This document shows positions 21,566 through 25,529 of a stretch of DNA of 64,000 bases, piece by piece (position 1 is the first letter of the stretch; each line of letters opens with the position of its first letter). The notes under the pieces are model-generated. The model was not told the DNA's origin, did no database searches, and saw only the letters and a list, made by a program, of their open reading frames with translations. A program made the translations under genes and the position numbers. This stretch comes from Nitrospirota bacterium (lineage in GTDB: Bacteria > Nitrospirota > UBA9217). The stretch covers positions 96,001 to 160,000 of the forward strand of contig CAVVOB010000012.1 of assembly GCA_963749655.1 (NCBI GenBank). The letters are read 5' to 3'.

Positions 21566-22132
21566 TTACGGGGCCGCCGGCTTCCATCCCTCGTCGGTCG
21601 AGTAGGGCAGCGCCTTGCCGTCGAAAATGATGCGAATGCGGCGCTCGCCATGCGAGCCCTTGGTCTCCTGGACGATTATGTCGAAGTCGATAGCCGACAT
21701 GATCATGTCGCCAAACCGCTCATTCATCCAGCGCTGGATTGCCGGCCCATACACCTCTACCGCCTCGTGCATGCGATAAATAGCGCCGGTTTGCCAGCGT
21801 ACCGGGGGAGGGGCCAGGGGGGCCAGCGAGCCGGCTTTCAAGTCAAGTTCCTTTTCGAGGCATTCCTGAGTACTTTTCTCTAAAGGAGCCTGGCCGGTGA
21901 GGATCGCTCCGATCCGGACAGGCAGGAGCTTGCAGGCACTGCCCAGGGCTTCCAGGGTCAGGCCTTTTTTGATAGCCGCCTTATTGGCCAGATCCAATGT
22001 CGGCTTGCGCTGCTCGTAACTGTCGAGTGCAAGCGAATCTACTACGCTGGTCCGGTCAGTAGCTTGTGCCGGCGAAATCCAGCAAAGTCCTGCAACGATA
22101 ACTGCCGATACTTTCAGTAACGTCTTGTTCAT
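21566..22132 (-). CDS. cynS: Cyanate hydratase (cyanase) homolog with an N-terminal Sec signal peptide
   Basis: C-terminal IYRMHEAVEVYG...ERFGDMIMSAIDF...IIFDGKALPY matches the cyanase signature and retains the catalytic R/E/S; N-terminus MNKTLLKVSAVIVAGLCWISPAQA. Confidence 0.85.
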   Translation of the reverse strand: MNKTLLKVSAVIVAGLCWISPAQATDRTSVVDSLALDSYEQRKPTLDLANKAAIKKGLTLEALGSACKLLPVRIGAILTGQAPLEKSTQECLEKELDLKAGSLAPLAPPPVRWQTGAIYRMHEAVEVYGPAIQRWMNERFGDMIMSAIDFDIIVQETKGSHGERRIRIIFDGKALPYSTDEGWKPAAP

Positions 22133-22269
22133 AACCCCTCCTTAGTATTGTAATGAGCATCATTTATAATAACGTGTCATTTACAGAGCGCTGTGATCAC
22201 CACCTCCTCTCTGTCTGGAATGCCCATCGGAAAATAACAGCCGACTGATGCTGTTTTCCGCCGGCTTTT

Positions 22270-23967
22270 TTAATATTTCGTAAATTCGCGATCGTAGCGT
22301 TCAGCCTTGCCTTTGCCGTCATGCCCCCCATTGACGGCCGCGGCCGAACGAATAACCGGCGCCGCAAGCTTCGGTTTGGAGAAAGGCACGATATTGCTTT
22401 TCTGCGGAGCCTGAGCTGCCCCGTCGCTTACCTTGAAGAATGCTACCGTGCTCTGAAGCTGCCCGGCCTGCGAAGCCAGTTCCTCGGCAGTGGACGACAT
22501 CTCCTCGGCGGCCCCCGCGTTCTGCTGGATCACGTGATTGAGTTGCTGTATGGAAGCGTTTATCTGGCCGGCCCCGGAGGCCTGCTCCTTGCTCGCGGCG
22601 CTGATCTCCTGCACCAGCTCGGCGGTCTTCTGGATGTCCGGCACGAGCTTTGAGAGCAGCTGGCCGGCACGCTCGGCGACGTCCAGGCTTGACGCCGAGA
22701 GCTTGCTTATTTCGGAGGCTGCTGTCTGGCTCCGTTCCGCGAGCTTCCGGACTTCTGAAGCGACCACCGCGAAGCCCTTGCCGTGCTCGCCCGCCCGGGC
22801 CGCTTCGATGGCGGCGTTCAGCGCAAGCAGGTTTGTCTGCCGGGCGATCTCCCCGATGATCGAGATCCGAGTGGCGATGTCCTTCATGGCGTCTACCGCC
22901 TCGGTTACCGCCTTTCCGCTCTCCTGCGCGTCAGCCGCCGATTTCAGGGCGATCTTCTCGGTCTGTGAGGCGTTGTCCGCATTCTGCCTGATAGTGGCGT
23001 TCATCTCCTCTATGGAGGACGATGCTTCCTCGGCCGACGCCGCCTGCTCGGTAGTGCCCTGGGACATCTGCTCCGTGCCTCCGCTGAGCTGCTTGCTTCC
23101 CGAAGCCACGTTGTCCGCCGCGTTCTTGACGTCGACGACGACCTGGCGAAGCTTCTCGGCCATTGTTTTCATGGCGGAGTAGATGCCCGTTTCATTTTTC
23201 CCATTCGCCTCGAACTCTACGGTCAGGTCTCCGTCGGAGATCTTCCAGGCGATCGCCGCTATATGCGCGGGCTCCCCTCCGATCGGCACGATTATCGAGC
23301 GGCTGATCATGATCCCCCCGACGATGACGGAGGCCCCCAGCAGCAGCGTCAAAAGGAGGATCCAGACTACGGCATTTCTCTTTGCAGCGGTCGACCGCTC
23401 GACGGCCTGGTTCATGCTCGCCTGATGGAACAACCCGATTTCATGAAGAGCTCCCAGCATCCTGTCATAGGAGTCCCTCCCCTGCGTCGTCAGGATCTTA
23501 AGGGACTCTTCTTTTGCAAAGGCGCTGCTCAACCTCAGGACTTCCGTCTTGAGCATGCCGAAGGAGGCCCACTCGTTCTTGAACGTCGCCATGTGCCCCG
23601 CAACCGCCGAGGCCCCGCTCTTGCGGGTCATTTCTTCATAATCCGCTATTTCCTTGCCGAGCTTATCCGTCATATCGTTGATGCTCTGTTCCACCTTCTT
23701 GAGCCCATCGGGGTCGGTCATGGCGGAATGTATGATCAGATACCGCAGAACTTCCGAAAGGGTCTTCTCGATCTCATCGACCTTGACCAGGGGAATGGCT
23801 TCGGCTTTCACGATCGACAGCGAGATGTTTGCAACGCTGTTCGTGAAAAAAAAGCCTATCCCGCCCGCGAAAAGCAGGCAGGCTATCGATATCACGGCAT
23901 TCAACAGCAATTTGGATTTTATTTTCATAATGGAGAATCCTTTCATGACAGCTCTTGATTGCTCCAC
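22270..23967 (-). CDS. Methyl-accepting chemotaxis protein (periplasmic four-helix-type sensor, HAMP, MA domain); true start may be 23946 or 23928
   Basis: Two TM segments; [31 protein letters not shown]-terminal EFTKY pentapeptide-like tail. Confidence 0.93.
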
Positions 23968-24082
23968 AGCCCCGAAGCGAAGACCTCTGGCCCGGGAAAC
24001 ATTCGTCTTCAGATTGCGCAGTGTAAAGCCCGTGAGTCAGGTCAGGTTTGCTGCCCGAATCTGCGGCGTTTGAGCAGGCGCC

Positions 24083-25087
24083 TCAGCTCTTGCTGAAGCT
24101 CGCATCCACGAAAGTCTTCAGGTCTGTTTTCTGGATCAAACCGGCGGACACCGACATGTCGTGGATCGTCTGGTAATCCGCAAGTTTGGGCGCGAGGTCG
24201 CTGTATATAATGCGGTTCGAGGGGTGCTGCATTACATTCACGATTACGCGTTCGTCTATCTGCACGTACTTCCGCGCAAGGGTTGCGACTTCCTTCGAAC
24301 CTTTATCCTTGTCCTCATCGATGAACTTGCCGCTCCTCTGGATGCTATGCACCCATTCCCGGATCCCTTCCGGGTTGGACGATAATTGCTGTTTATGTAC
24401 GACCGCGACGCAGCAAATGTGGTTGGGGAGTATGTCTTTGGAAAGCTTCAGTATCCGTCCGGTTCCCGCCTGTACCGCCCTCTCACCTGCAGGCTCAGGA
24501 CCGAGATAAGCGTCGATGCTGCCGCTCTTGAGCGAATCGGGCATATTCGGGGGCGGGACCGGCATGATGTTCACGTCTTTCAGGGACAGCCCCGCGGTTT
24601 TGAGATATTTATCGAGAATGACCGCATGGGTGGATACCCGGTAGGGAACCGCCACGGTCTTTCCCTTGAGGTCTGCCGCCGATTTTATCGAAGAGTCCGC
24701 TCTGATGGTCAGGCCGGATCCGTGCCGGTGGCCTATTGCGACCGTCCTGATATCCATGCCGTTGTTGAACAGATCCATTGCAAAGTTCGACAGGATCATG
24801 GCCCCGCCGACCACGTTCGCCTTGAGCGCGCCGGCAAGTGCGTCCCACGATTTGAACTGCATCGGCTCGATATCGATGTTCTTGAATGAGCCATTGTCCC
24901 GTGCATGGGACATCAGCATGGCAAAATGATCGAGAATCGGGATATAGGCGATCTTCATGGTGGTTTTTGAAACGGCTATTGAAGGAAATCCAAGGGAGCT
25001 CAGGCCGAGAGCGGCGCAGCCGACCGCGGTCGTTTTCAGGAATTGACGGCGGCCCATTTTTTTGGAAGATCTTTTCTCGTTTCCCAT
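24083..25087 (-). CDS. Tat-exported CmpA/NrtA (NMT1-like) substrate-binding protein
   Basis: GRRQFLK Tat motif; IAYIPILDH, FKSW..L, HRHGS, DLKGKTVAVP, PPPNM, HICC motifs. Confidence 0.85.
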   Translation of the reverse strand: MGNEKRSSKKMGRRQFLKTTAVGCAALGLSSLGFPSIAVSKTTMKIAYIPILDHFAMLMSHARDNGSFKNIDIEPMQFKSWDALAGALKANVVGGAMILSNFAMDLFNNGMDIRTVAIGHRHGSGLTIRADSSIKSAADLKGKTVAVPYRVSTHAVILDKYLKTAGLSLKDVNIMPVPPPNMPDSLKSGSIDAYLGPEPAGERAVQAGTGRILKLSKDILPNHICCVAVVHKQQLSSNPEGIREWVHSIQRSGKFIDEDKDKGSKEVATLARKYVQIDERVIVNVMQHPSNRIIYSDLAPKLADYQTIHDMSVSAGLIQKTDLKTFVDASFSKS

Positions 25088-25512
25088 TTTGTGTGTCTCC
25101 TTTTTGTTGAATTACTTCAACTCTGACGAATTGAAGTTGTTTCTTTTTCTTTAGTCCTACTCACGGCCAGGCAATATGATCATTTATTGATGCTCATGTT
25201 CTTGAACAAGTAAACCCTCTTCTTGTCCGCCCGCAGCAGACTGCGGGGATTGAACTCACTCCGGAATTCATTTACGAAAACTCCCTCGCCGTTCTGTGCC
25301 GTGAGGCAGCAAGACATGCAGAACGCAATAAAAACGCAGATTTGCCGCACTGTTCAGTAAGTATTATGTACGTGACAGGATTTACTCGCCAAAAACTACA
25401 GCGAGGACAGGATGGACAGATACGTAATCAAATCAAAAGTATTGTCGCGGACAGCAGTCTTCGGAAGTGGTTATCGGAATAAATTCTGCTATCTGGTTAT
25501 GGCGTTGATAAA

Positions 25513-25529
25513 AGCAAATATAAGGCCAG
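25513..25529 (-). promoter_or_regulatory. Putative sigma54 (-24/-12) promoter
   Basis: Minus strand reads CTGGCCTTATATTTGCT (TGGC-N7-TTGC), upstream of the SBP-MCP-cyanase genes. Confidence 0.55.

Follow-up and report, generated by a model that had tools for sequence, protein, structure and literature searches.

Cyanate is a low-level, actively turned-over source of nitrogen and, for nitrifier consortia, a source of energy, and in current models of its use, cyanase is a cytoplasmic enzyme supplied by a transporter. Cyanobacterial operons of the cynABDS type encode the NrtA-family binding protein CynA, a permease, an ATPase, and a cytoplasmic cyanase. Here, we examine a 64,000-nucleotide stretch of DNA (hereafter 'the window'; positions 96,001–160,000 of contig CAVVOB010000012.1, GenBank assembly GCA_963749655.1) from a groundwater or sediment Nitrospirota bacterium, in which the genes of a solute-binding protein (SBP), a methyl-accepting chemotaxis protein (MCP), and a cyanase homologue with a predicted export signal lie side by side. 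This trio suggests extracytoplasmic sensing and breakdown of a nitrogen compound. In Nitrospinota, cynS adjoins genes of a putative cyanate ATP-binding cassette (ABC) transporter, according to the available part of PMC10839748. A bacterial exported cyanase is not described in the available parts of PMC7078480, PMC9079694, and PMC10839748, and we found no description of one in open-access papers and preprints (subscription journals and supplements lay outside that search).

The stimulation of chemoreceptors and kinases by SBPs is established. As far as its available text goes, one review names the SBP-dependent chemoreceptor systems MBP–Tar, RBP/GBP–Trg, DppA–Tap, and PstS–CtpL, counts thirteen families whose SBPs are known to stimulate chemoreceptors or kinases, notes that the genes of SBPs linked to chemoreceptors mostly adjoin transporter genes, and presents the binding of MBP to Tar as a 'mushroom' model (PMC8050422). 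Other SBPs are encoded beside the sensor kinases that they activate, namely TorT–TorS, LuxP–LuxQ, and AioX–AioS (PMC8050422 and PMC11113362, in the parts available).

The assembly that contains the window (G000; 4.27 Mb in 39 contigs, 86.6% complete, the window being C12:96001–160000) carries the trio as three co-oriented open reading frames (ORFs) on the minus strand, 21566–25087. A first-pass annotation made from the DNA sequence had reported this layout, together with the nature of the three products, the presence of a signal peptide on the cyanase homologue, and the absence of an ABC permease or ATPase gene nearby; ORF calls, Pfam domains, and, for the signal peptide, a hydrophobic N-terminus bear this out, as far as the 47 window ORFs scanned extend. 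The features on which the argument depends are the following (4HB, four-helix bundle; Tat, twin-arginine translocation).

24083–25087, minus strand: SBP gene, 334 amino acids, NMT1_2 family (Pfam NMT1_2 at 123.1 bits, plus TAT_signal).
24974–25057, minus strand: predicted twin-arginine signal MGRRQFLKTTAVGCAALGLSSLGFPSIA, residues ~11–38 of the SBP (TAT_signal and TIGR01409 matches, residues 11–39).
22270–23928, minus strand: MCP gene, encoding a first transmembrane segment, a periplasmic 4HB sensor, a second transmembrane segment, a HAMP-like linker, and a signalling domain; the ORF extends to a GTG at 23967.
23368–23844, minus strand: periplasmic sensor domain of the MCP, ORF residues ~42–198, including the tip motif LSxxFxKE(D/E).
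21566–22132, minus strand: gene of the cyanase homologue, 188 amino acids with a Sec-type signal (Pfam Cyanate_lyase at 76.7 bits, cut-off 25).
22061–22132, minus strand: predicted signal peptide MNKTLLKVSAVIVAGLCWISPAQA of the cyanase homologue, hydrophobic and ending in AQA; a ribosome-binding site, AAGGAGG, lies just 5' of the ATG.

The best explanation, to which we assign a probability of roughly one half, is that the locus consists of two adjoining units, one for sensing (SBP and MCP) and the other an exported cyanase, held together in one Nitrospirota lineage. In the sensing unit, the Tat-exported NMT1_2 SBP would serve no transporter; loaded with a small ligand, most likely an inorganic or nitrogen-containing anion, it would use both of its lobes to dock on the MCP 4HB sensor dimer, at the tip farthest from the membrane, and thereby relay a signal into a chemosensory pathway. 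MBP acts on Tar in much the same way, except that here the sensor protein would be a dedicated one. In the other unit, the cyanase would be made with a Sec signal peptide, fold in the periplasm, probably form a disulphide there, and convert periplasmic cyanate and bicarbonate to ammonia and CO2, the ammonium entering the cell via Amt. Breakdown in the periplasm followed by uptake through Amt would thus require no cyanate transporter and would keep a carbamoylating agent out of the cytoplasm.

The cyanase homologue aligns with solved cyanases over residues 40–177 (E 1.6e-15), an alignment that places R120, E123, and S146 at the catalytic RxxE...S positions, which we take to be those numbered R96, E99, and S122 in the Escherichia coli enzyme. 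Its AlphaFold2 (AF2) model (predicted local distance difference test, pLDDT, 76.6) has the helical N-terminal domain and the C-terminal domain of the solved cyanases, and Foldseek matches to it are cyanases at every rank from 1 to 14 (probability 1.00, ~30% identity), with a high root-mean-square deviation of ~16 Å. Its relatives are named 'hypothetical protein' by NCBI and 'cyanate lyase' by JGI. Among the best 120 homologues (62–100% identical), the catalytic R, E, and S are kept in 120/120, and 107 begin with a signal-peptide-like N-terminus, leaders having been called by a hydrophobicity heuristic. Both C67 and C91 are present in all 107 of these; the 13 leaderless homologues include one truncated gene call and five proteins without C91. 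The cysteine pair tracks the leader, as a periplasmic disulphide would predict. In an alignment of 23 sequences, the leaders are variable and hydrophobic and end in a small-x-small motif (AxA, AQA, or similar).

In a maximum-likelihood tree of 60 cyanases (18 with a leader, 7 without, and 35 canonical, the latter being the first 35 of 62 length-filtered hits), all 25 members of the clade fall on one branch (support 100/99) with a stem of 3.31 changes per column, long branches meeting at the base of the clade. The leaderless forms are nested inside it as two separate groups, i.e. two losses, and the leader is probably ancestral in the clade. Within a library clustered at 50% identity, the whole exported clade forms a single cluster, with the next full-length relatives 31–44% identical. 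The invariant catalytic residues, the tree, and the single cluster together describe a compact, strongly constrained clade. Given the signal peptide, the cysteine pair that accompanies it, and the invariant catalytic residues, the homologue may fairly be expected to act outside the cytoplasm.

In a sample of 401 Nitrospirota genomes, 85 contain a cyanase-like match, and six of these matches belong to the exported clade: that of the window's own genome, in which it is the only Cyanate_lyase match, those of G161, G115, and G200 (89–90% identity), and those of two Nitrospiraceae genomes, G388 and G213 (66–67%). The other 79 are canonical, at 33–46% identity. The two Nitrospiraceae loci have the gene orders below.

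G388: glnA, a NifA/NtrC-like sigma-54 activator, an NMT1_2 SBP, an NrtB-like permease (with a frame change), an NrtD-like ATPase, exported cynS, amt.
G213: glnD, glnA, a sigma-54 activator, exported cynS, amt.

In both genomes, then, exported cynS lies directly 5' of amt in a glnA cluster, which fits the earlier proposal that a periplasmic cyanase supplies the cell with ammonia. G213 has a second, canonical cynS ~10 kb away, behind ABC permease and ATPase genes (on contig G213:C14, locus L073, the exported gene is at 7637–8209 and the canonical one, with these genes, at ~17508–19489). The coexistence of two cyanase types, the exported one 5' of amt, fits a periplasmic function that is not redundant and whose last step is the uptake of ammonium. 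In the window's own genome, the only ammonium transporter match (C26:40593–41711, minus strand) is in four pieces in different frames, one with an in-frame TGA, which reflects either damage to the gene or an error in sequencing.

For the sensing unit, we begin with the SBP. Its twin-arginine motif reads RRQFLK, and RRxFLK is kept in the consensus of the clade alignment; the cleavage site of the Tat signal was placed from the sequence and is a prediction. The first-pass annotation had called the protein a Tat-exported SBP of the CmpA/NrtA type. The Tat signal and the assignment at the level of the Pfam family stand; the closer relationship does not. The nearest solved relative is 3un6 (E 5e-21), and NrtA-, CmpA-, and NrtC-like chains match merely at E 1e-4 to 1e-6 (4.5e-5 for CmpA, 2i48; 2.7e-6 for an NrtC-like protein, 8wm7), so that the label is too specific. 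The score against the NCBIfam model SsuA_fam, 127.7, is likewise under its cut-off of 163.5. Relatives of the SBP carry the names 'ABC transporter substrate-binding protein' or 'NitT/TauT family' at NCBI and JGI.

The genomic neighbourhoods of the SBP clade were compared in metagenomes. Scanned with an alignment built from 20 members of the clade, these gave 80 loci, which we divided at 40% identity to the window SBP. At or above this value there are 41 loci, 34 of them assessable (at least 200 bp downstream), and in 26/34 the next gene encodes a 4HB_MCP_1 sensor: 12 MCPs, 10 hybrid histidine kinases (4HB-HisKA-HATPase with one to three receiver domains), and 4 proteins truncated at the contig end. 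In three of the remaining eight assessable loci, a single gene separates the SBP from a 4HB sensor (L092, L095, and L115), and in none of the 34 does an ABC gene directly follow the SBP. Below 40% identity (39 loci), an ABC permease or ATPase is next in 22 (17 scanned, and five apparent copies of L152 that were not scanned), a 4HB MCP in three, a second SBP in one, and a gene of another kind or with no Pfam match in four, with no usable ORF in nine. The two groups overlap near 36% identity, where L113 and L116 are linked to sensors and L121–L128 to ABC genes. Some loci are duplicates or near-duplicates (L082 = L085, L093 = L094, L096 = L100, and L088, L089, and L106 nearly alike).

Chemotaxis genes also occur around the clade. 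The order in L086 is CheR, CheW, SBP, MCP, a PBP_like_2 protein, and CheA, and CheW is likewise 5' of the SBP in L088, L090, L115, and L118. L115 encodes a UrtA-type urea-binding protein (566.8 bits against a cut-off of 492.75) between the SBP and two 4HB MCPs, an arrangement repeated in L117, and in L095 the SBP gene is followed by that of an anion-selective porin. A further SBP homologue, 44% identical, in Thiomargarita (L080, G403; 5534–7930) is divergent from a gene of an HPP-family membrane protein, with no ABC genes nearby; the exported cyanase of this genome is on a separately named record. HPP proteins transport nitrite. The UrtA-type neighbour, the anion porin, and the HPP protein are contextual hints that the clade senses nitrogen compounds or anions. 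The L115 segment (5944–11452; also L117) runs CheW, a PilJ-HAMP-PAS-GGDEF-EAL protein, the clade SBP, the UrtA-type protein, and the two MCPs, and may hold a transporter-less urea-sensing pair next to the clade SBP.

A transporter for the SBP was sought in the window and in the whole assembly. No ABC_tran or BPD_transp_1 domain occurs in the 47 window ORFs scanned (of 52 picked at ≥100 amino acids). The 16 BPD_transp_1 matches of the 86.6%-complete assembly comprise 10 of Opp/Nik type, 2 of sugar type, 2 Pst, and 2 TupB/ModB-like proteins, with none of NrtB, SsuC, or TauC type; a cognate permease elsewhere in the genome, which the first-pass annotation had named as a refutation, is thus not among these matches. 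None of the five NMT1_2 SBPs of the genome adjoins an ABC gene, and three of the four besides the window SBP adjoin sensor kinases. At C14:164323–166489 (L018, 5116–8489), tandem NMT1_2 SBPs precede a 4HB_MCP_1-HAMP-HisKA protein, not far from a sigma-54 response regulator, and at C14:37011–38099 (L017, 6011–7099), an NMT1 SBP is flanked by a CheB/CheR-PAS kinase on one side and a HAMP-PAS-GAF kinase on the other.

The MCP has the domains expected of a receptor, 4HB_MCP_1 (61.9 bits), flanked by two hydrophobic segments, and MCPsignal (122.6 bits). Its orthologues begin MKIKSK in an alignment of 21 sensor N-termini, so that translation probably begins with the ATG at 23928. Across 21 sensors (numbering of alignment A3), H67, L133, S134, and K139 show no variation, and E140 and D141 hardly any. 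The sensor domains of the MCPs and of the kinases are homologous: the tip motif LSxxFxK is invariant, and identity to the window MCP is 27–33% for the kinases and 16–37% for non-orthologous MCPs. The genome also has four CheA-type matches and one FliG match.

We modelled two copies of the MCP sensor (ORF residues 42–198) together with the mature SBP (residues 39–334), using separate alignments. The interface score (ipSAE) was 0.68 (0.66–0.70 between runs) against 0.01 for the best control, the runs shared at least 95% of contacts, and partner pLDDT was at least 93. In the calibration of the modelling tool, its mark was reached by 116/157 solved complexes and by 2/215 mismatched pairs, counts that hold only roughly here because custom alignments and three chains were used; part of the score may also reflect likeness to known complexes, as the model resembles the MBP–Tar 'mushroom'. 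The modelled SBP contacts both sensor copies at residues 71–73 and 132–144 (A3 numbering), i.e. the conserved tip motif, through its own residues 78–92, 144–146, and 175–191, which include clade-invariant positions. The clade-wide adjacency to 4HB sensors, the che operons, the lack of a NitT/TauT-type permease in the assembly, and the model that passes its controls all support the first-pass proposal that the SBP signals through the adjacent MCP, and we think it likely that the two form a co-receptor system.

Whether the three genes belong together was judged from their surroundings. The trio, or its visible part, recurs in the same order in G161 (L002/L075), G115 (L003, where the contig begins inside the MCP gene), and G200 (L004/L074) and at L081, L082/L085, and L084, with flanks that vary among SIR2, STAND NTPase, HepT, PilZ, Dxs/FtsJ, and cytochrome genes. 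The trio proteins of the window's genome are 84–90% identical to those of genomes of two other genera; citrate synthase is 70–72% identical to that of the same two genera and 75% within the genus, and an M16 peptidase is 70–72% identical within the genus. A search of 14 genomes of the same genus did not find the SBP. The constant order in changing flanks, the similarity above that of citrate synthase, and the absence of the SBP from these congeners make the trio look like a unit that has moved between genera. The synteny of SBP, MCP, and cynS that the first-pass annotation had proposed to look for is kept in changing surroundings within one Nitrospirota family and, among the loci examined, is confined to it.

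The regulatory elements of the locus are the following.

25514–25528, minus strand: sigma-54-like motif TGGCCTTATATTTGC (TGGC-N7-TTGC), 427 nt upstream of the SBP start codon, probably non-functional.
25115–25136, minus strand: conserved hairpin CTTCAATTC-gtca-GAGTTGAAG, just 5' of the SBP ribosome-binding site, in 6/6 orthologous loci.
22231–22266, minus strand: terminator-like hairpin and T-run, directly 3' of the MCP stop codon, predicted from folding of the sequence.
22187–22201, minus strand: palindrome GTGATCAC (GTGATnATCAC in orthologues), ~55 nt 5' of the cynS-like start, a candidate operator or promoter element.
21500–21527, minus strand: strong hairpin with a 12-bp stem, 3' of the cynS-like gene, found by a terminator scan and likely the end of the unit.

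Two claims about expression are not supported. A sigma-54-like promoter had been proposed for the trio, and we reject it: the motif is present, yet TGGC-N7-TTGC occurs at chance frequency in the window (2 observed, 2.87 expected) and was not found in any of 5/5 aligned orthologous upstream regions. The GG-N10-GC form has a single 9-of-11 match near the SBP, at -441, a frequency equal to chance; at a threshold of at least 8 of 11 consensus positions, none occurs in the spacers upstream of the MCP gene or of cynS, nor upstream of exported cynS in G388 or G213, and no Sigma54_activat domain was found among the scanned window ORFs. The other claim, that the three genes form a single operon, finds no support, given the terminator-like hairpin after the MCP gene and the conserved promoter-like sequence before cynS. 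Among sequencing runs compared with 21400–25700, DNA runs sharing small portions of its words came up, and no RNA run did. That hairpin, judged by folding and conservation (a simple terminator scan missed it because its loop exceeds 8 nt), recurs with TTTTT at the same place in all six loci, i.e. the window and five orthologous ones, its stem sequences differing. The block containing the palindrome GTGATCAC is kept in 6/6 aligned MCP–cynS spacers, with an AT-rich stretch between it and the cynS ribosome-binding site. From these two elements, cynS probably has its own regulated promoter. Upstream of the SBP, the hairpin CTTCAATTC-gtca-GAGTTGAAG shows one substitution, in L081, which improves pairing, and a second conserved block lies ~230–340 nt 5' of the gene; downstream of cynS, the hairpin at 21500–21527 recurs with identical sequence in orthologous loci.

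Apart from the promoter, then, what the first-pass annotation observed is real, and its interpretation is supported in part. Several points weigh against even the more modest reading of two adjoining units. Linkage of the trio is confined to one Nitrospirota family, 30/34 assessable SBP-clade loci have no cyanase, and outside that family the exported cyanase adjoins neither a clade SBP nor an MCP; six loci from other phyla (L005–L010: Massilia, two Nostoc, Thiomargarita, a deltaproteobacterium, and Fortiea) show no link of the cyanase to SBP or MCP. Many SBP loci are near-duplicates or close kin, so independent events are overcounted. The hairpin and promoter-like block between the MCP gene and cynS mean that co-regulation is not required. 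In G161, the MCP is in two pieces (L075/L002, 13302–14784; residues 1–104 and 209–565, ~100 nt apart) and is without residues 105–208, most of the sensor domain, and flagellin was not found in the 86.6%-complete assembly. The complex model supports binding as a prediction and not as proof, and the solved relatives of the SBP, the nearest being 3un6, yield no usable ligand. As regards the enzyme, NCBIfam cynS cut-offs are unmet (TIGR00673, 66.5 against 113.3; NF002773, 83.1 against 150) and the protein is ~7 residues shorter just before the catalytic Arg, so that its substrate could differ. Finally, exported cynS in G388 follows an ABC importer of the nitrate/cyanate type, which weakens the argument that no import is needed.

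The three genes could also be neighbours without a shared function, a possibility to which we give odds clearly short of even. The SBP–MCP pair would then respond to a different ligand (for example nitrate, nitrite, bicarbonate, or a sulfonate), cynS would be an independent nitrogen-scavenging gene, and the genes would be adjacent merely through the spread of a small accessory DNA segment among related Nitrospirota. The restriction to one family and the elements that separate the MCP gene from cynS agree with this, as do the variable, defence-rich borders (SIR2-TPR, DUF3800, and IS110 in the window, SIR2_2 and a STAND NTPase in L082, HepT in L004); the trio is also more alike between genera than the housekeeping proteins checked, which fits co-transfer. 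On the other hand, six or more distinct contigs carry these three genes together in one order between flanks that vary on both sides, an NMT1_2 SBP (with ABC genes) is also 5' of the exported cyanase in G388, a genome of another family, and other contexts of the SBP clade indicate nitrogen compounds or anions. The opposite extreme is a dedicated extracytoplasmic cyanate module, in which the transporter-less SBP would report cyanate to the MCP, the exported cyanase would destroy the signal, and the ammonium would go to Amt. This we hold to be rather unlikely. It depends on cyanate being the ligand of the SBP, which would make the trio one functional module; this is the least certain step of the interpretation and, taken by itself, is doubtful.

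Other alternatives concern one unit or the other. That the SBP is an ordinary binding protein of an ABC importer, with its permease and ATPase elsewhere in the genome and its adjacency to the MCP incidental, would suit the database names of its relatives, an assembly that is 86.6% complete, and the rule that chemoreceptor-active SBPs are mostly encoded beside transporter genes (PMC8050422, in the part available). We nevertheless judge it very improbable, given that 0/16 BPD_transp_1 matches are NitT/TauT-like, that at 40% identity or more the neighbour of the SBP is an ABC gene in 0/34 loci and a 4HB sensor in 26/34, with ABC linkage only in remoter relatives, and that the complex model passes its controls. 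It is likewise improbable, if less so, that the cyanase homologue is not a periplasmic cyanase, its N-terminus being an uncleaved membrane anchor or unused, or its substrate a different small molecule. The scores under the NCBIfam cut-offs, the ~7 residues missing before the catalytic Arg, and the long stem apart from canonical cyanases would agree with this, and the decamer and activity are assumed, the former having to assemble after Sec export. Set against these are the catalytic R, E, and S, invariant in 120/120, the cysteine pair that accompanies the signal peptide, the top fold matches, all of them cyanases, and a gene that adjoins amt and glnA in two genomes.

Elsewhere in the window, the aconitase gene is in two overlapping ORFs (5242–5919 and 5894–7117, plus strand, spanning 5242–7117) that match successive parts of the Pfam model, a split due to a frameshift or an assembly error. 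A 96-nt direct repeat (25933–26028 and 28291–28386; 94% identical, 2358 nt apart) lies within ORF fragments 25829–26119 and 28169–28675, which represent a partial duplicate of a 4HBT thioesterase gene. These pieces flank a SIR2_2-TPR gene (26251–28053), and the arrangement looks like a defence-like gene inserted in, or beside, a duplicated thioesterase. Between 28 and 36 kb, GC content is low, and the DNA encodes DUF3800 and an IS110 transposase.

If the exported cyanase clade is what it appears to be, it would provide a second route for cyanate, in which breakdown takes place outside the cytoplasm, the cell imports the ammonium or shares it, and its proteins escape carbamoylation. Through such a widespread clade, bacteria of at least four phyla could use the nitrogen of cyanate with no transporter for it, and ammonia set free by the enzyme could reach cells nearby. 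Surveys that use curated cynS models may miss these enzymes, which NCBI labels 'hypothetical'. As for the SBP clade, many genes named 'ABC transporter substrate-binding protein' (NitT/TauT) would be those of co-receptors of 4HB chemoreceptors and hybrid kinases, and indirect sensing would extend to an SBP family unmentioned in the available text of the review PMC8050422. Were the trio a single module after all, it would be the first cyanate-sensing or cyanate-taxis system.

Compared with CynS (E. coli cynTSX; structures 1dw9, 4y42, and 6tv0), the homologue described here shares the two-domain fold, ~30% identity over 145 aligned columns, and the catalytic Arg, Glu, and Ser, but it adds a Sec-type signal peptide and two clade-specific cysteines, forms a separate clade (100/99), is ~7 residues shorter before the catalytic Arg, scores under the NCBIfam equivalog cut-off, and has no cynT or cynX neighbour. 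With the cynABDS-type operons, the locus shares an NMT1_2-family SBP gene beside a cyanase gene; unlike them, it lacks a permease and an ATPase, has a chemoreceptor in their place, and encodes a cyanase with an export signal. An arrangement like that of cynABDS is seen in G213, in which permease and ATPase genes precede the canonical cynS.

Systems of the MBP–Tar kind likewise combine an exported SBP with a periplasmic 4HB MCP, and the docking predicted here, on the tip and on both subunits, is of the same sort. The SBPs of those systems also feed transporters, whereas for the present one no ABC partner was found in the assembly, and its gene lies beside that of the receptor; it also belongs to the NMT1_2 family, the term 'NMT1' being absent from the available text of PMC8050422. 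What is new is a clade of NMT1_2 proteins dedicated to sensing, in which the Tat signal is conserved, a transporter is lacking, and MCPs and kinases are interchangeable as partners. In this last respect, the clade approaches TorT–TorS, LuxP–LuxQ, and AioX–AioS: its SBPs are paired with hybrid histidine kinases bearing the homologous 4HB sensor in 10 loci, and two further SBP–kinase pairs occur in the window's own genome. The SBP family and the sensor subfamily differ from those of the TorT–TorS kind, and one sensing pair serves two kinds of output, MCP or kinase.

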